IMG/VR virus record: IMGVR_UViG_3300027932_000003
Coordinates: 1 to 34,531 of that record
Reading direction: 5' to 3' (one strand)
Length of the DNA: 34,531 nt
DNA from: a virus
Part shown: piece by piece, positions 17,238 to 29,035 of the stretch
How the letters are laid out: every line of letters starts with the position of its first letter
Position numbering within the stretch: position 1 is the stretch's first letter
Program-made: the position numbers and the translations under genes
The notes under the pieces: model-generated
Told to the model about the DNA's origin: nothing
What the model saw: only the letters and a program-made list of their open reading frames with translations
The model's database searches: none

Positions 17238-17620
17238 ACATTTGGGTTATATCTTTTTATCTAAAATTTTTTTCTTTATAAATCTCGTTACGCTCTTTCT
17301 TTGCGTAAAATTACGTTAAGAAAAATAAAAATATCGAGAGATAAGAGTTTAAAAAGATTTCTTGTAAATTTACGACTTTAGTTTATATACTCATCATTAC
17401 AATTTGTTACGCAGTAAGCGAAATAAAAGATCATTAGATGAATTGAAAGTACGTGTTTGATTTCAAATTTCAATTTTTCATATCATAAAAAAATCGAAAA
17501 ATAAAAAAGTTTTTACTTCTTCAGTTGAAAACTTCAAAAAAAGGAAGAAGATTTTGACATAAAACAATTTTTACTTTTACAACAACATTTATAATTTTAT
17601 AATATATACATGATAATAAT

Positions 17621-20600
17621 ATGAGTTTCTTATTAAATCTTGGTGACCTAGGTACATTTTTTTCAGATGAGCTAACAGCATTAGAAAATTTTGCAAATTT
17701 CTTAAGCTCTGATTTTATAAACTTTTTTAGTGCAGTAGTTAATGATATTGAAAATGTTGTAAGTTTCATAGGTCAGGCAATTAGTGATATTCCAACTTTT
17801 ATGCAAAAAATTGCTAACAATTTCTTGACGATTTTGCAAAATTTTGTACAAACTGCAATTCCAGTAGTAAGTGGATTTTTAACATTTCTTGAACAACAAA
17901 TTATAAATGTATTTCAAGATTTATCTTCTTTAGCTTCTACATTTATAAACGATGCATATTCATTTTTACAGGGTGTTGTAAATGCATTTGCAAATTTAAT
18001 AAGTACAATAGTTCAAGATTTCTTAAATAATTTTGGTCAAAATATGAAACATATTAGTTCTGCAATTTCTCAACTTACTCAATTTTTAACTCCATTTATT
18101 GCACCAATTACAATTGGTAAATTTTTGCCAGCAATAATAGATAAATTAGCTGAAATTTTGCCAGAAGTTGAAATAGATTTAGCACCTGTTGGTCTAGGCG
18201 GAAAAATTCCAATTAACTTTGGAGAAATTGTAAAAGCGTTTGCTGAAACTGCGGTAGACTTTTTTGATGAAGTTAGACAAGAAATACAAACTACGCTTAA
18301 GGAGTTTATAAAAGAGCCATTTATTTCAGATTTTAAAATTACTGCTAGAGAAATATTTAATGAAATTGGACTTGGAGATTTGCCATTTGCAGATCCTCCA
18401 TTTAGATTAATTGCAAATTGGGTCGGAGCAAGATCATTTTCCGAAATAAAAGACCATCTCAGGGAAACAATTTTATTGACCGGTTTTCCAGCATGGTTTA
18501 CTGATGCTTATCTAGAATCTCCTGCAGATGATTATATACCTAAAAATCCATTATTTAGACCAGTAAATATAAGAGATGTAATTTTAGCGTCTCAATACGG
18601 TTTTCTGAATTTTGATGCAGTTTCGCAATATGCAGAAAATAATTTAATAACTCCAAAAACTGCAAAATTAATGTATCAAAATGAGACTGCTAGACTTTTG
18701 CAAAGAGCAGTTGAGGAAGGCATTCGTCAATTTATAGTCACCCCAGAAAAAGCTTATCAAGAAATAATACAAAATGTCAATTTAGCAGGCAAAGACTTAT
18801 ATTTAAAAGTTTTTACTTTAGAGTATAATTATTCAGTTCAAAGAATTGTCAGACAATTTTTAAGATCACTTTTGTCGAGAGCTTTAACGAATTTTGGAAG
18901 ACCTTACATTGATCTAAAATTCCTAGAATCAACAGTTCAAAAATTATTTAAAGAATTAAATTATCCTGAAGAAGTTCAAAATGTTTTTAACGTTATGATT
19001 GAACAATCTCAAATTGTGTATACTAATCAATTACTTTTAACACAATTAGAACAAATTACCAGATTAGGAATATTTGATGAGAAAAAGATAAAAGCGGATT
19101 TAAAAGCTAATAACTTTAATGAACAAATAGCACTAACAATTTTGAATTATGAACTTCAATATGTACAATTACAACATATTCTAAAAGAGTTTCAGTTCAA
19201 ACTACAAAATTACATTATTAGTTCAAAAGATGCAGAAAAAGAGTTAAAACATCTAGGTTTTGATTCTTCTATAATCTCTGAGATAATTTTTGAATATCAA
19301 ACAGCTCCATTAACAAAATATCAAATTAGTCAAATTGAAAATTTAGCAAAGAAAGGATATTTATCAGTTGATGAAATTAAAAAACAATTAAATTCTCTTA
19401 AAGTAATTAAAGAATTTGAAGACATATTTATCAATTACACAAATCAAGAAATTCAAATATCATCAATTTTGAGTATTGCAAAAGAACAATTGAGAAACTT
19501 CTTGATAGATTTGAAAACTGTAGAAAATGAATTAAAAGCGTTAAAAATTAATGATTATTTAATAAACGAGGTAATTCAAGAAGAATACAATATAAATATT
19601 GCTAAATTACAATTATCATATATAGAAACTTTAGCTAAGAATTTATACTATGATCAAGCTCAATTAGCTGGAGAATTATCTAAAATTTTGAAAGATAAAA
19701 CTGCAATAGATCTTTATACTCAAAAATTCTATTATGAATATGTATTTCCAAAAATAGTTAACTATTACGTAAGTTTAGCAAGACATGGAATAATTGGAAA
19801 TATTAAAAATTTACCAAAAGAAATTGTAGATTATGAAATTAATCCAGAAATCCAAATTTTTCAACTTACAACAGAATTAGAATATATAAAGTCTTTATTA
19901 AAAGATTTACAAATAACTCCAACAAATGCTGAAAATGAGTTAATAAAATTAGGAATGCAAAAAGATATAGCTAATTTGTTTGTACAAACTTATGTACCAA
20001 CATTTTATAGTTTACATACTATAATTGGAAATGTTGTGCAAGGTCAACTTTACAAAGTAGGAAAAATTCCAATTAATTTAGGAAATGCAGAACAACAATT
20101 AAGACAATTAGGAATTCCAGATAATCAAATTAAAGTTTTATTAAACCAATATGCCTCTTCATTTGGCTTAGAAATTTGGAGGAAATTCTTACCTTCACTT
20201 TCTCAAATTGAAACTGCAATAAAATATAACTTTCCAATTAGTCAATTAGTTGAATATTCATTTATACCTTCTGAATTTCTAAATCTTTACACTAATTTAT
20301 ATCAATATGAGCTAATTGGACAATATGTACAATCTCTAAAGACAGAATATGTAGAATTATTAGTTTATGGAGTTCAAAATATACAATTAGAAAGTTTATT
20401 AAAACAATACGGAATAAATGAAACATTATTAGGAGTTTTCAAATTATCAGCTCAAATTAGAAAAATATTAACGGCTTACCAAGAGCTTTACATCACCCCA
20501 TCTAAAGCACTCACAATTAGCGAATATATTAGTAATCCTAATCAATTATTACAAAAAGTATTTAGTGAATTTCAAGTTCCTAGTGATTTACAAAATACTT

Positions 20601-20797
20601 ATCTCGAGTATGCAAGAAATAGGAGATTAAGGACTTACGTAAACGACATAATTTCAACAATCAATTTACTATTTGAAAAGCAGAAAATTGATTTAAATAC
20701 CGCACAATCATATTTGCAACAATTAAAACAATATGGTTTAACTAATGAAGAAATACAATTAATATTGTTAAACTGGCAATTGAGATCTAACTACTAA
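17621..20797 (+). CDS. large virion-associated structural protein, predominantly helical (1058 aa)
   Basis: Single uninterrupted ATG ORF of 3.2 kb; size matches the roughly 1070-aa rudivirus minor structural / terminal fibre protein (from memory). Confidence 0.75.
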   Translation: MSFLLNLGDLGTFFSDELTALENFANFLSSDFINFFSAVVNDIENVVSFIGQAISDIPTFMQKIANNFLTILQNFVQTAIPVVSGFLTFLEQQIINVFQDLSSLASTFINDAYSFLQGVVNAFANLISTIVQDFLNNFGQNMKHISSAISQLTQFLTPFIAPITIGKFLPAIIDKLAEILPEVEIDLAPVGLGGKIPINFGEIVKAFAETAVDFFDEVRQEIQTTLKEFIKEPFISDFKITAREIFNEIGLGDLPFADPPFRLIANWVGARSFSEIKDHLRETILLTGFPAWFTDAYLESPADDYIPKNPLFRPVNIRDVILASQYGFLNFDAVSQYAENNLITPKTAKLMYQNETARLLQRAVEEGIRQFIVTPEKAYQEIIQNVNLAGKDLYLKVFTLEYNYSVQRIVRQFLRSLLSRALTNFGRPYIDLKFLESTVQKLFKELNYPEEVQNVFNVMIEQSQIVYTNQLLLTQLEQITRLGIFDEKKIKADLKANNFNEQIALTILNYELQYVQLQHILKEFQFKLQNYIISSKDAEKELKHLGFDSSIISEIIFEYQTAPLTKYQISQIENLAKKGYLSVDEIKKQLNSLKVIKEFEDIFINYTNQEIQISSILSIAKEQLRNFLIDLKTVENELKALKINDYLINEVIQEEYNINIAKLQLSYIETLAKNLYYDQAQLAGELSKILKDKTAIDLYTQKFYYEYVFPKIVNYYVSLARHGIIGNIKNLPKEIVDYEINPEIQIFQLTTELEYIKSLLKDLQITPTNAENELIKLGMQKDIANLFVQTYVPTFYSLHTIIGNVVQGQLYKVGKIPINLGNAEQQLRQLGIPDNQIKVLLNQYASSFGLEIWRKFLPSLSQIETAIKYNFPISQLVEYSFIPSEFLNLYTNLYQYELIGQYVQSLKTEYVELLVYGVQNIQLESLLKQYGINETLLGVFKLSAQIRKILTAYQELYITPSKALTISEYISNPNQLLQKVFSEFQVPSDLQNTYLEYARNRRLRTYVNDIISTINLLFEKQKIDLNTAQSYLQQLKQYGLTNEEIQLILLNWQLRSNY

Positions 20798-20828
20798 ATA
20801 AATTTGTCATATTTTTTAGTTTTTACAC

Positions 20829-21644
20829 ATGAGCGTTAATTTGTGTCATTATGAGGCAGAAAATATAAGTTATAAAGATTTAGAAAATCTTCAAGGTATG
20901 ATATATTATGAAATAAAATATGATGGTACACATATATGTTTAAAATATGAAAATGAACTAAAAATTAATACTAGAAAAGATATACCTCATGATAAAACAT
21001 TTCAGAATTTGTTTTATCAAGTTCCAAATATTGATGAAATTATAAAATATATAAAAGAACATAACAATTATATAATACATGGGGAACTTATACATAAAAA
21101 GACATCAGCACTACAAATCCATACAAATGAAACTCCAGAATTTATAATTTATGATGTCTTTGACAAAGAGAACAACAGATATTTAAGTCCGCTTGAAGTT
21201 GATAGTGAAATTTACGAATGGTATCCAGAAATTTGTTTAGATTTAGATGATTTACTTGATATTATAACTAAAGAAAAACTTGAGGGCTTAGTAGCTAAAA
21301 TCTATAATCCGAAATTTGCAAATTGTAAAGAAGGCAAAAACTTCAACTTATGCGTTTATAAATACAAACCGTATTTTTCAACTTTAGGAGTAATATTTAA
21401 GCCCGTTAGAAAAGAAATTGATGTTAGACAATTAGCGTTTCTTCTCGGCGAAATAGATAATGATTTAAAGAATAATAAAGATGAATGGTATAATAATCAT
21501 CCAGATTTGCTAAGATTCTTACTAAATAATAAAGATAAAATACTTCAACTTTTGCAAAATAAAAACTTTATACTACAAGTTGAGAAAGAAACACATTTAA
21601 ACATTAAGAAAATTGAAGAATACATTAAAAATTTCAAGAGATAA
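20829..21644 (+). CDS. hypothetical protein (271 aa)
   Basis: ATG ORF; promoter aaataaatttGTCATAtt. Confidence 0.6.
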   Translation: MSVNLCHYEAENISYKDLENLQGMIYYEIKYDGTHICLKYENELKINTRKDIPHDKTFQNLFYQVPNIDEIIKYIKEHNNYIIHGELIHKKTSALQIHTNETPEFIIYDVFDKENNRYLSPLEVDSEIYEWYPEICLDLDDLLDIITKEKLEGLVAKIYNPKFANCKEGKNFNLCVYKYKPYFSTLGVIFKPVRKEIDVRQLAFLLGEIDNDLKNNKDEWYNNHPDLLRFLLNNKDKILQLLQNKNFILQVEKETHLNIKKIEEYIKNFKR

Positions 21645-21725
21645 CAATACTTAGATCAAGTCATATACATAATATTATGTATAAGTTATGTGTACTTATT
21701 TTTGTCAACTCATTAATTTTTTCAT

Positions 21726-23474
21726 ATGAGCTTACCGTACAAAGTGCGTTTTAAATTACCACTTGAATTTCTGACTTTACAAGATTGGAATAACTTTGTC
21801 AAAAATCTGTTGTTCATTAATCAATATGGCCCAGGAAAATTATTACAATATTATCAAAATGGCAATTTTCAAAATCTAAATGATGTAATTGCAAAATATC
21901 TATATGTTTCAGCTTTGAAAGTTATGGGATATAACGTTTTGCATAATTTATCAACACCACAGGCTTATACATTCGGTGAAGGAAATCAACAGCCATTTAA
22001 AACCATGTCAAATAGACCAACTGTTAGTTTTCCATATTCAATACCATTTGAATTTATACAATTTTATCCGATATCTAAATTGCCTAACTATCAATTCCCA
22101 GTTTTTCCAATTTCAAAATTACAAGTTCAATTATCACAAGTTAGTAAACAATTACAATTATTAATTCCCAAACTCATAAGTAAAATTATAACTCCTAACG
22201 GAATTGCAGGTACTCAATTTCAATTTTCTGGAACTGCAACTGTTGAAGATTTAGTAAATAATTATTTAAATCCACAATATTTACAAACTTGGAGAGAAAT
22301 AATAATACAAAATTTAGGCAGTTCTGCAGTTCAAATTAATAATTCGATTTATTTAATGCCTAAAAATTGTTTAAAAATAACTGCAAGTTCTCCATCTGAA
22401 ATTCAATTAACTGCACAAACTCCAACTTTGCTAAGTGAAGAAATTGAATTTGTTGGAACTACTGGAACTCCCATAACTACTTATACAATTACTATAACAA
22501 ATAATCAGGCTAACCCTACTCCGTCACCGTTTCAGCAATTACTAAATTTAAATTTATCATCACTTTTATCAAGTCCTAGTCAATTTTCAAATTTAGAATT
22601 TTGCTTAGACGTTCAATGTAATACGCCTCTTTATGCATATGTTGAAAATTATAGTTCTAATTTATCAACTGTTTATATTTGGATAAATTTACCAACTTCA
22701 ATACCGGCAAACGGTTCATTAACTATCTATATGTTTATCAGAAATACAAATCAATATCCTTATACTGGAATTTCCCCATTAGTTGCACAACAATTATCAT
22801 TAACTGGAAATTATGATAATGGAACTAATGTATTTCCATATTATCAAAGTTTTGCAAATTTATCAGCTTTACCATCTGGTTGGGGATTAGTATATAACTC
22901 AGCTTCTAATTCTTTATTATTTCAAACATATTATTTGGAAATTACAAATGCTAATTTCAATAATGGAATAACACAAAGTTCATCACCAAATCTTGAAAAT
23001 TTAGTAGTTGATTTCCTAGTTCAATTAAATTCATTTAGTGGAACTCGTAGTTCTGTTATTGGAATCGGCTTAGGTCAAGCTAATACAAGATCAACTTATT
23101 TTATTGGCGGTGGCGGTGGGGCAGTTATCGGCAATAATTCAGACGGTGTAGCTTTTGGATATGATAATGTTGGTACAACAAATATACTTTATGAATATGT
23201 TGGCACTAGTAATGTTAATAGTTTCTCAGTATCAACAAGTGCAGTACTTCTCGGTATTGGTTTAGCACCGTCTGAAACATATTTCTATTATAATTATCAA
23301 ATTCAATATAGTTCAATTGATATTCCTGGAACATTTAGTTTGCCTATAACTGTAATTTTCCAATCAACACCTACAGATATGTATTTATATGCAATAAAAA
23401 CAAGAAATTTACCGCCAAACGGGGTAATGCCTTCAAATTCTCAACCGCAAAAGACAATAATTCTAATTACGTGA
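21726..23474 (+). CDS. putative minor structural protein, S/T/N/Q/G-rich (582 aa)
   Basis: ATG ORF; composition with Gly run GGGGGAVIGNNSDG; size class of a rudivirus minor structural protein. Confidence 0.6.
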   Translation: MSLPYKVRFKLPLEFLTLQDWNNFVKNLLFINQYGPGKLLQYYQNGNFQNLNDVIAKYLYVSALKVMGYNVLHNLSTPQAYTFGEGNQQPFKTMSNRPTVSFPYSIPFEFIQFYPISKLPNYQFPVFPISKLQVQLSQVSKQLQLLIPKLISKIITPNGIAGTQFQFSGTATVEDLVNNYLNPQYLQTWREIIIQNLGSSAVQINNSIYLMPKNCLKITASSPSEIQLTAQTPTLLSEEIEFVGTTGTPITTYTITITNNQANPTPSPFQQLLNLNLSSLLSSPSQFSNLEFCLDVQCNTPLYAYVENYSSNLSTVYIWINLPTSIPANGSLTIYMFIRNTNQYPYTGISPLVAQQLSLTGNYDNGTNVFPYYQSFANLSALPSGWGLVYNSASNSLLFQTYYLEITNANFNNGITQSSSPNLENLVVDFLVQLNSFSGTRSSVIGIGLGQANTRSTYFIGGGGGAVIGNNSDGVAFGYDNVGTTNILYEYVGTSNVNSFSVSTSAVLLGIGLAPSETYFYYNYQIQYSSIDIPGTFSLPITVIFQSTPTDMYLYAIKTRNLPPNGVMPSNSQPQKTIILIT

Positions 23475-23481
23475 TGAAAAA

Positions 23482-24456
23482 ATGTCTGGCCCAGTGACTG
23501 TCTCACGAATACCGCAACCATCATTTCCATGCAAAGCAGTCTATAAAATTGCTAATTTATTATCTCCAGTAACTAAATATTCATTAATTTCCTCTTCCTT
23601 ATGGAACGAAATTGTTCAAGATTTATATCTAACTTATAGTGTATTCAAATATATTAACTATTTATCTCAATATCCATATCCAGAATATATACAGCCTGCA
23701 ATTGATGAATTTCTAAACTTTCCTTATCAATTTACGCCTTATTCATTTACGCCTCTATTGATTGCACAAAAAGGAATTCCGTTAACCGCAGATGAATTTA
23801 ATAAACTTATTGATGCAATTACAGAATTAGCGAATAAATCCAATATTAAACTAAAATCACAACTAAATCACGTTCAACGTGATCAAATTGTTAGATCTTC
23901 ACAATTTTCAAATATAATTTATGCGGTAAATCAGTTACTAACTTTCAATCATAATCAGTACTTTCTACTTAGTTGTACAGGTTATGAATTTAGTAATTTA
24001 TTAAGTAAGCAAAATACATTTCTGAATGTGTTAATTGAAAATTTAAAATATAGCATTACTATTCCCTCAAATACTTATATTAAAAACTTCTTAATATATC
24101 AAACTTCAGAACTTATTATTAGTTACGGTTCAATTGCAAACTTAGTAATTAAAATAAATTTTGGAGGAATATTGTTATATAATTATTCATATATAAATTC
24201 AGTAAATATAGAAACTGATAATGACGGAATGCGTTTTACTGGTCATACATCAGCTAATACAATCACTATTCAAACTGAAAATGGAGGTATTTTTTTATAT
24301 GATGATTCATATGTAAACACTTTATATGTAGAAAATAATGTTGCAGGAATATATTTATATAATAATGCGATAATAGAAAATTTAATTTGTAAACAAAATT
24401 CTGGAGGAGTATATGTTTCTGGGAATGCAAAAATTATAAATAATCAATGTGCTTAA
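23482..24456 (+). CDS. hypothetical protein with C-terminal beta-helix-like repeats (324 aa)
   Basis: C-terminal roughly 100 residues carry repeats GGILLYNYSYINSVNIE / GGIFLYDDSYVNTLYVE / AGIYLYNNAIIENLICK / GGVYVSGNAKIINN. Confidence 0.6.
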   Translation: MSGPVTVSRIPQPSFPCKAVYKIANLLSPVTKYSLISSSLWNEIVQDLYLTYSVFKYINYLSQYPYPEYIQPAIDEFLNFPYQFTPYSFTPLLIAQKGIPLTADEFNKLIDAITELANKSNIKLKSQLNHVQRDQIVRSSQFSNIIYAVNQLLTFNHNQYFLLSCTGYEFSNLLSKQNTFLNVLIENLKYSITIPSNTYIKNFLIYQTSELIISYGSIANLVIKINFGGILLYNYSYINSVNIETDNDGMRFTGHTSANTITIQTENGGIFLYDDSYVNTLYVENNVAGIYLYNNAIIENLICKQNSGGVYVSGNAKIINNQCA

Positions 24457-24953: not shown

Positions 24954-25883
24954 TTAGGAACTAATAACTTCAAATAATGCATAAACTGTACATTTTCCAG
25001 TTGCCCAGGCATAAATATTTGAAGGATTATTTACATGAATTTCTATTGAATCATTTTGTAAAATCGGGAAGTTATTATATAGATTATTGCCAATATAAAC
25101 GATATAATTACTGAGATTTTGGAGAATTATTCTTACAGTTTCTATGGATGGGCCTGTGTACAAAGGTGAAGGAGTAGTAGAAACATCTAATTGTAGACCT
25201 TCTATAGTTGGTGGACTTAAGTATAAACCAAGTTTATTAATTGTATTTGTCAAACCGACAGTTGCTAAATATACATATGTCAAAGTATAAGCTAAAGAAT
25301 CAGCAACAAAATAAATAGCACTTTGTAACGAAATTCCTAATCTCTTAGCTATTGAATTTATAGTTTCATAAAATGAAATATAGAAATTCTGTAAATCTTC
25401 TTTTATAATTGTCCTAGATTGTTCAATATTTGAAATTAAATAATTAACAACATTATAAATTGTTTCATATAGAGCAATTGTATCTTTCTCTAAAATTGAA
25501 GTGGCAGTCGGAACGGCAACTACAATTTTTTCATAAATTTCTTCTGGTAATTTAACAATTGAATAATAAAGTTGTTGATTTGAGTATAATATTGAATTTA
25601 TTTGTTGATTTGCAGTTGCTATAAAACCTGCAATGTATATTGGATCAAGTTCAGTTAGCACAGGCTGACCAGAAACGTAAACCTCATCATAGAAAAATCC
25701 AGAATCTGCAGTAATTGAATTTGGAACTGTAAGATTACCGTTTTTCAAAATTGAAGTAACTGCATTTCCGCCAGTTTCATAAAGCTGAATTAGCAAAAGT
25801 GATGCAGTATTCCACATTGAAGATGTTAATCTCTGAAACGGTGACGCAAGTAATTCGCTAATTGAAGTATATGTAACGCTCAT
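24954..25883 (-). CDS. hypothetical protein (309 aa)
   Basis: ATG ORF; no motif recognised. Confidence 0.6.
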   Translation of the reverse strand: MSVTYTSISELLASPFQRLTSSMWNTASLLLIQLYETGGNAVTSILKNGNLTVPNSITADSGFFYDEVYVSGQPVLTELDPIYIAGFIATANQQINSILYSNQQLYYSIVKLPEEIYEKIVVAVPTATSILEKDTIALYETIYNVVNYLISNIEQSRTIIKEDLQNFYISFYETINSIAKRLGISLQSAIYFVADSLAYTLTYVYLATVGLTNTINKLGLYLSPPTIEGLQLDVSTTPSPLYTGPSIETVRIILQNLSNYIVYIGNNLYNNFPILQNDSIEIHVNNPSNIYAWATGKCTVYALFEVISS

Positions 25884-27838: not shown

Positions 27839-29035
27839 ATGGAATTTAAAAGAAAAAGTTCAGGCATAATAAAAAGTTTTAGCTCATTAGACATTTTTTC
27901 TATAAACCTACTTTACATGGGAATTTTAAGCGGTATAAGTTATCCTCTTTTTGTCTCAAGTCTTCTAAAATCTGTAAATTTACTATTTGCAATTTTGATA
28001 GGTGCAATTTTTGGAATTCCGTTACTTGCAATGTATTATTTACTGACTAAAAAAATTCCGCTTAATGGAGGAGATTATGCGTACATTAGATCTTCATTTT
28101 CTCCAAAATTCTATACAGTTTTTGGAATTTCGCTCTGGTTAATTTATGTATTTTCAGCACCAGTTTTATCAAACCTTGTATTGTTAAATTTCAATATTCC
28201 AATATTCGATAAGTTTTTAATTTCAGAACTATTACTTGGGACTGCGTTACTTAGTGTTAGCAAAAAAACAATTTATGCTTATATTGTTGACGCTATCGCA
28301 ATTTTACAAATAATCGTTTCGCTAATCTTGCCAATTTCAAGTTTCCATTTTCAAATTCAAAATTTTACAATATCCAATACTCTATTATCGGCATTATTAT
28401 TTGATTTATCTATGTTTTTATTTCTAAATGCAATTAGTTACATAGCAGGAGAAACAAAAAACATAAACAAAAATGCGAAAATCGGATATTTTGTAAGTTA
28501 TTTAGTAGTTACAATTTTAGCAGTATTGGACAGTTATTCAAATCTAAATATATTATTTCTACTAATGCCGATATGGTTTATGAGTTATATTTTTGTTACT
28601 TCTATGATTCAGAGTAGACTAGTTCAAAATTTAGCATTTGATAAAATCTTACCTGAAAAATTTGCAAAAATAACGCCTAATGCTTTACTGTTAATCTTTA
28701 TCGCTGATACAATTACAAACGTTTTAGAAAATCTTCTAAATTTTACAATTTCATTTGGTCTTGATGGCCTGTTATTTATTTTCTGGAACTTTATAATTGT
28801 TAGTTTTGCATTTCTGAAATTGACAAATAAAAAACTATTATTTTCAATAGTAATGATTAGTCTAATTTTACAGATCTTCTTATTCTTTTATTTAGGATTA
28901 CAAAATAGCGTATTTTATAATTTTGTAATTGAGGGAAACATACTATATACAATATTAAGAATATTGATAATGCCAATTGTTGGAGGAATTATTTACTTAT
29001 TGAGGAGAAAAGTGATAAATGTTGAATTAAAATGA
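27839..29035 (+). CDS. polytopic membrane protein, possible flippase/transporter (398 aa)
   Basis: At least 10 hydrophobic segments by eye; sits between a glycosyltransferase gene and 29032..29934, overlapping the latter by 4 nt. Confidence 0.6.
   Translation: MEFKRKSSGIIKSFSSLDIFSINLLYMGILSGISYPLFVSSLLKSVNLLFAILIGAIFGIPLLAMYYLLTKKIPLNGGDYAYIRSSFSPKFYTVFGISLWLIYVFSAPVLSNLVLLNFNIPIFDKFLISELLLGTALLSVSKKTIYAYIVDAIAILQIIVSLILPISSFHFQIQNFTISNTLLSALLFDLSMFLFLNAISYIAGETKNINKNAKIGYFVSYLVVTILAVLDSYSNLNILFLLMPIWFMSYIFVTSMIQSRLVQNLAFDKILPEKFAKITPNALLLIFIADTITNVLENLLNFTISFGLDGLLFIFWNFIIVSFAFLKLTNKKLLFSIVMISLILQIFLFFYLGLQNSVFYNFVIEGNILYTILRILIMPIVGGIIYLLRRKVINVELK

Follow-up and report, generated by a model that had tools for sequence, protein, structure and literature searches.

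Whether host recognition at the ends of a rod-shaped archaeal virus belongs to its known fibre protein alone, or is shared with proteins encoded just behind it, is the question raised by a gene block at positions 17621-24456 of the IMG/VR record IMGVR_UViG_3300027932_000003. The record was analysed at its full length of 34,531 nucleotides (nt), referred to below as the window (G+C content about 25%), which is essentially the complete genome of an uncultured usarudivirus. Exact copies of the 324-aa and 582-aa proteins discussed below are present in JGI/ENA metagenome data, encoded on a contig of 34,531 nt. Using megablast, positions 1-22771 align with Sulfolobus islandicus rod-shaped virus 8 (SIRV8) at about 89% nt identity, and the other Yellowstone isolates among SIRV4-11 (Rudiviridae, Usarudivirus) show 86-89%. 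The block consists of four consecutive plus-strand open reading frames (ORFs) encoding proteins of 1058, 271, 582 and 324 amino acids (aa), located at 17621-20797, 20829-21644, 21726-23474 and 23482-24456, exactly as the initial annotation had listed them. Attention falls on the last of these, the 324-aa product, whose C-terminal part is predicted to fold as a beta-helix. By analogy with receptor-binding modules in other systems, this protein is most likely a low-copy adhesin at the virion end, or an accessory protein of the fibre, that tunes host recognition, a reading that can be held with moderate confidence.

The C-terminal part of the 324-aa protein is built from repeats that are evident both in the sequence itself and in its autocorrelation, and that vary in copy number between relatives. 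Residues 221-320 (24142..24441, plus strand) form five in-register units, each exactly 20 aa long (LVIKINFGGILLYNYSYINS, VNIETDNDGMRFTGHTSANT, ITIQTENGGIFLYDDSYVNT, LYVENNVAGIYLYNNAIIEN and LICKQNSGGVYVSGNAKIIN), followed by the tail NQCA. At a lag of 20 residues, the BLOSUM62 autocorrelation of the protein reaches +110, compared with -85 +/- 23 for shuffled sequences; across lags of 5 to 44, not one of the 2000 shuffles attained +110. No periodicity was seen in the first 200 aa. The same 20-residue period is found in the MRV1, ARV1 and SIRV2 homologs despite their low identity (0 of 1000 shuffles for each).

The AlphaFold2 (AF2) model of the protein has a mean predicted local distance difference test score (pLDDT) of 80, rising to 90-98 over aa 170-324. 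Within this region, a beta-solenoid of 7-8 coils is predicted for aa 179-324 (24016..24453, plus strand), with the stacked coils of about 18-25 residues that characterize a right-handed parallel beta-helix. A right-handed beta-helix at the C-terminus is thus predicted with high confidence. Among its matches the adhesin TibA, which is not an enzyme, ranks first, ahead of pectate lyases, tapirins and the solenoid protein 3jx8, and in shape the region is similar to adhesins and tailspikes. At the level of sequence families, aa 201-324 match no Pfam family at E<=1 and belong to no Pfam beta-helix, PbH1 or lyase family, and PDB searches by sequence and profile gave no usable match for the protein. 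The initial annotation had described four C-terminal repeats of roughly 20 residues, reminiscent of a beta-helix, and had named structure prediction as a check. The repeats are real and their proposed motif (GG-I/V-x-LY-x-x-S/A-Y-V/I-N) fits the units, and the region is modelled as a solenoid and not as disordered; the count requires correction, to five by sequence and to 7-8 coils in the model.

The 324-aa protein is a homolog of SIRV2 ORF309, in which a predicted N-terminal helical domain is followed by the C-terminal solenoid (23482..24456, plus strand). Membership is given by phrog_10791 (E=1.1e-111; family phrog_10791 / phrog_14297). When we count the listed genes ourselves, SIRV2 ORF309 corresponds to gp40; the SIRV8 counterpart is ORF45. 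Using tblastn, homologs were detected in 40 rudivirus records (SIRV1-11, SBRV1, SMRV1, SRV, ARV1, ARV2, SSRV1 and MRV1), to which Foldseek against BFVD added an ARV3 homolog; the Foldseek matches in that database are rudiviral proteins only, all labelled "Uncharacterized protein". When 1.84 billion representative proteins were searched with a profile, only 21 clusters were recovered, so the family appears to be rudivirus-specific. No Pfam (E<=0.1) or NCBIfam match was obtained for the 324-aa protein, and the SIRV2, SIRV8, ARV1 and MRV1 records that were opened annotate the homolog as hypothetical. The literature search returned no paper pairing ORF309 with Sulfolobus and no published function. 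A literature match to "gp40" concerns SIRV3 gp40, a small gene named AcrIIIB2, and was taken as unrelated to this family.

Conservation within the family is unevenly distributed. Across 35 homologs, 48 columns are invariant, including C17, W41, N42, C165, C303 and C323, and thereby all four cysteines. The N-terminal domain is conserved, as is the C-terminal cap, and variation is concentrated in the repeats. After aa 170, the invariant residues are F180, L181, I185, Y199, K201, N202, G216, N300, C303, A316, N320 and C323; the spacing between C303 and C323 is exactly one coil. Identity of the window protein to isolate proteins is 42-55% at the aa level, the best rudiviral isolate homolog reaching 55% on a backbone of 89% nt identity. 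In comparison with SIRV8, the gene is 73-76% identical in the matching parts and the sequence downstream 82%. SIRV4/5/8 ORF45 carries an extra N-terminal domain of about 235 aa that is encoded nowhere in the window (tblastn). Compared with these proteins, the window protein is therefore a short form.

The position of the gene is also conserved, always directly 3' of a virion-protein gene. In the window, a gap of 7 nt separates it from the 582-aa ORF; the SIRV2 and SIRV8 homologs likewise follow P564, the SIRV2 counterpart of the 582-aa protein. In MRV1 and ARV1 the order of the genes for P564 and for the fibre protein P1070 differs: the homolog lies 3' of the P1070 homolog with a 1-nt gap, and the P564 homolog is located elsewhere.

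Close relatives differ in the length of the helix by whole coils. According to a hidden Markov model of the repeat, alleles of 300, 320, 324, 360, 380, 404 and 440 aa contain 4, 5, 5, 7, 8, 9 and 11 in-register units, respectively, and in all alleles the units end 4 residues before the C-terminus. The long alleles contain 60-nt and 120-nt tandem repeats at the DNA level with 86-90% identity, and the retention of such repeats points to recent duplication. In the window allele, Tandem Repeats Finder detected no 60-nt DNA repeat under the protein repeat; its coils are diverged at the DNA level. A separate, 15-nt tandem repeat (CCTTATCAATTTACG, 2.2 copies) lies further upstream in the gene at 23722-23754, encodes PYQFTPYSFTP and is also present in two contigs, L006 and L007.

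Comparison of the window (22905-24185) with the first of these, the metagenomic contig L006 (ENA ERZ27246786 k141_83039), adds recombination to this variation. The final 570 nt of the gene for the 582-aa protein, which cover most of its hypervariable segment, contain not a single nt difference. Codons 1-52 of the 324-aa gene are also identical at the aa level, the first aa difference falling at codon 53. The first 702 nt of that gene nevertheless contain 102 differences, the contig encodes 9 coils compared with 5 in the window, and identity in the methyltransferase gene that lies downstream is no more than 88%. Identity through codon 52 followed by divergence places a recombination junction, as judged from the aligned sequences, inside the conserved N-terminal domain of the 324-aa gene.

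Two neighbours of this gene give the block its known role. The 1058-aa protein (17621..20797, plus strand) is identified by homology and published SIRV2 experiments as a P1070-type tail-fibre protein, the homolog of SIRV2 ORF1070/gp38. Its phrog_7334 match (E=0, 1948.9 bits) aligns aa 1-1058 with profile positions 1-1078, and the nt identity of the gene is 75.7% to SIRV2 ORF1070 (megablast) and about 89% to SIRV8 ORF42. In SIRV2, each end of the virion bears three tail fibres that are formed by gp38 and attach to the pili of the host (PMC5537682, PMC7911016, PMC9319562). The initial annotation had called this protein helical. A helical nature is suggested by helix-like internal repeats, among them a 96-residue duplication at about aa 527-686 (61 segment pairs reach a score of >=35, compared with 2 in shuffles), and by weak matches of aa 12-250 to PHROGs of phage tape-measure proteins (E between 5e-7 and 4e-3). 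Roughly eight copies of an A-E-x-x-L-x-x-L-G motif can be counted in it by eye. Upstream of the ORF by 18-33 nt, a tandem pair of TTTATAAT (17588..17603, plus strand) may serve as an archaeal TATA-type promoter element.

The 582-aa protein (21726..23474, plus strand) is, on the same kind of evidence, a P564-type minor virion protein. It is matched over its full length by phrog_7548 (E=2.8e-208), contains DUF2341 (PF10102) at 26.8 bits (gathering score 23.4) and shares the synteny of its homolog SIRV2 ORF564/gp39, which is a minor virion protein (PMC5537682, PMC7911016). The AF2 model is poor at the N-terminus, reaches pLDDT 85-95 at aa ~260-370 and is mixed beyond. From this model, whose overall confidence is low, a putative lectin-like beta-sandwich of the Concanavalin-A-like lectin/glucanase fold is inferred. 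Besides that fold and DUF2341, the nearest counterparts of this putative domain in known systems are the carbohydrate-binding modules of siphophage Dit and receptor-binding proteins. PDB searches by sequence and profile gave no usable match for the protein, and no carbohydrate-binding residues were identified in it.

Its most distinctive feature is a hypervariable segment with conserved flanks at aa 381-560 (22866..23405, plus strand). Identity to 41 homologs is 0.20-0.30 within the segment, compared with 0.6-0.8 in the rest of the protein. Between about 22855 and 23412 (aa ~377-562), no nt similarity to SIRV8 can be detected on a backbone that is 89% identical, so that at the nt level the segment of the window is unrelated to that of SIRV8. 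Hypervariability combined with a predicted lectin-like fold fits direct contact with a variable host ligand.

These observations can be combined into a model of a terminal adsorption apparatus. In this model, the P1070 fibre, whose role is published, would be accompanied by P564 as a lectin-like component and by the 324-aa protein as an adhesin or accessory of adjustable length. The N-terminal domain of the latter (aa ~20-200) would dock to the fibre or the virion end. The minimal right-handed beta-helix, with its 20-residue coils and closed by the conserved, Cys-containing C-terminal cap, would act as a rigid adhesin or spacer. Its length would change by whole coils (4-11) through duplication and deletion of the 60/120-nt tandem repeats, together with recombination in the N-terminal part. 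The hypervariable segment of P564 may contact a variable ligand on the host surface, for which the glycosylated type IV pilus is the most plausible candidate. The model is favoured because these features follow the pattern of receptor-binding modules, in which a conserved domain for docking is joined to a variable, exposed one, with recombination where the two meet and with fibre genes close by.

The pattern has parallels in other systems. The self-associating autotransporter adhesins TibA and Ag43, as well as pertactin, also possess a three-stranded right-handed beta-helix with coils of 19-20 residues. However, identity to them is only 9-12%, and the 324-aa protein is archaeal-viral and lacks both a signal peptide and a beta-barrel translocator. 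The likeness therefore concerns the fold and, probably, the mode of action, and not family membership. As in phage tailspikes and receptor-binding proteins, a conserved N-terminal domain is followed by a variable C-terminal beta-helix, the gene lies beside fibre genes and the recombination breakpoint falls in the conserved part. In contrast to tailspikes, the beta-helix shows no sign of an enzymatic cleft and changes length by whole-coil copy number, which to our knowledge is not typical of tailspikes.

Several points weigh against an adhesin role for the 324-aa protein. Beta-helices are also found in enzymes and in intracellular proteins. The helical N-terminal part, on which docking would depend, is modelled with only moderate confidence (pLDDT 50-80). 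Pilus binding has been assigned to P1070 itself (PMC7911016), and the SIRV2 virion proteins named in a review are gp26, gp33, gp38 and gp39, the ORF309 homolog not being among them (PMC5537682). This last point equally favours the main rival, according to which the protein is not part of the virion and instead is an assembly factor or chaperone of the terminal fibre, or acts in or on the infected cell, for example by blocking pili against superinfection. That the gene lies, in several genera of rudiviruses, immediately 3' of a gene for a fibre or virion protein also fits a chaperone as well as it fits an adhesin. Genes for assembly factors and chaperones of phage tail fibres sit just downstream of the fibre genes. 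A chaperone, however, is usually conserved together with its client, whereas here the N-terminal domain is conserved and a long, rigid beta-helix of surface type varies in length and sequence, a pattern of variation better suited to an exposed surface under selection. Inspection of the sequence also reveals no signal peptide or membrane segment. A non-virion role is considered unlikely.

The fold itself raises the alternative of a tailspike-like enzyme, a depolymerase or lyase acting on the glycans of the pilus or S-layer. The coils, however, are minimal and lack the long loops that could form a cleft, the best match is an adhesin without enzymatic activity, and no Pfam beta-helix or lyase family is recognized. 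Gain and loss of whole coils between alleles would not be tolerated by a fixed active site. This alternative was rejected on the finding that no Asp, Glu, His or Arg is invariant in aa 170-324 among the 35 homologs, and its probability is very small. Another reading assigns the protein to a cytoplasmic or membrane-proximal module of the toastrack type, with a regulatory or anti-defence function unrelated to adsorption. The Pfam family DUF4097 "Toastrack" is likewise a beta-solenoid, and some members of the 324-aa family exceed its gathering score of 22.9 bits: the homologs P0025 and P0035 pass at 32.6 and 24.5 bits, respectively, P0022 stays below at 18.7 bits and the window protein has no match. 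With two homologs above the threshold, a relation at the family level is possible, which by itself indicates no function. As an explanation of the protein, this module is quite improbable. The adhesin or fibre accessory protein remains the favoured reading.

A candidate for a shared docking element was considered in this context. The motif S/T-x-x-x-W-N-x-V/I was tested as a common N-terminal anchor of the 582-aa, the 324-aa and a minus-strand 309-aa protein. The pattern [ILV][ST]xxx[WF]Nx[IVF][IV] is found at 21771-21800 near the N-terminus of the 582-aa protein and at 23587-23616 and 23782-23811 in the 324-aa protein, and could represent a shared docking helix. The regular expression, chosen post hoc, gave 3 matches compared with 0.69 expected, pairwise BLASTP gave E >=0.18, and alignment of the 582-aa and 324-aa profiles with hhalign placed the motif on top without significance (probability 0.3%, E=0.2). 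The motif was consequently rejected as evidence and kept as a lead.

A stronger form of the favoured reading would make the ORF309-family protein the unrecognised distal adhesin of rudivirus tail fibres, acting together with the lectin-fold P564 and adjustable in length by coils; this is put forward tentatively, as a possibility of low probability. If it were true, an archaeal virus would possess a contingency-like host-range locus, and pilus recognition would not be, or not only be, a property of P1070. Reviews credit rudivirus entry to P1070 fibres acting on type IV pili, and no named receptor-binding domain was found in the literature searched. Features typical of receptor-binding modules are now seen in two neighbouring proteins, the one combining a lectin-like domain with a hypervariable segment and the other having a coil-variable beta-helix, and both offer concrete targets in an archaeal virus and host that are genetically tractable. 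Should both prove to be missing from the virion, the block is an ordinary structural module of the kind already described. In the same literature, no description seems to exist of the predicted beta-helix and its variation in copy number by whole coils, of the recombination junction within the 324-aa gene, or of the predicted lectin-like fold of P564 with its bounded hypervariable segment.

Previous work has described both the block itself and the role of P1070 in the fibres. Full-length PHROG matches were obtained for all four proteins, and gene families and order are shared with SIRV2 (ORF1070-ORF564-ORF309) and SIRV8 (ORF42-ORF45). Taken as a whole, 17621-24456 can be read with reasonable probability as the conserved block of terminal-structure (adsorption) genes in a rod-shaped virus of Sulfolobus islandicus, of the Yellowstone type. 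The initial annotation had seen here a late structural block that may form the terminal fibre or adsorption apparatus. The structural assignment holds for the homologs of the SIRV2 virion proteins gp38/P1070 and gp39/P564 and fails for the 271-aa product, which belongs to an RNA-ligase family. As for the apparatus, the fibre role is known through gp38, and receptor binding by the beta-helix protein is plausible.

The 271-aa gene (20829..21644, plus strand) encodes an RNA-ligase-family nucleotidyltransferase according to Pfam and motif evidence. The protein matches RNA_ligase (PF09414) with E=1.9e-11 and 44.9 bits (cut-off 27) and DNA_ligase_A_M with 29 bits (cut-off 26.2). Nucleotidyltransferase motifs I, III, IV and V can be read in the translation as KYDG (K30), HGEL, EGLVAK and VYKYKP. 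No NCBIfam model is matched at its cut-off, and PDB sequence and profile searches gave nothing usable. The gene is limited to Yellowstone SIRVs (17 records), the SIRV8 records that were opened annotating the homolog as hypothetical. This ligase-like gene, placed between the homologs of P1070 and P564, is a usarudivirus-specific feature of the window, in contrast to SIRV2, where no such gene lies between ORF1070 and ORF564. By sequence, this putative ligase is a lineage-specific, non-structural insert, an enzyme unrelated to the rest of the block. Its presence may be of interest, the genome ends of the virus being covalently closed hairpins.

Beyond gene content, base composition changes within the block. 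Between about 19000 and 25000, the cumulative GC skew peaks at about 19-22 kb, and the skew is clearly negative from 22 kb (-0.25, -0.10, -0.21). The genes remain on the plus strand up to 24456 despite this turn. For SIRV2, replication has been proposed to start at an internal origin close to gp39, which corresponds to the 582-aa gene of the window (preprint 10.1101/2021.11.18.469202).

Among the genes downstream of the block, the minus-strand ORF at 24954-25883 encodes the 309-aa protein mentioned above, a homolog of SIRV2 ORF269 that is conserved at 54-91% identity across the rudivirus records that were searched. Pfam and NCBIfam gave no match for it, and its GenBank labels are inconsistent, reading either hypothetical or "putative protein acetyl transferase". 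Amino-acid permeases are unusual genes for a virus. At 27839-29035 on the plus strand there is a very hydrophobic ORF of 398 aa, the apparent SIRV8 counterpart of which is annotated as an amino-acid permease (RefSeq).

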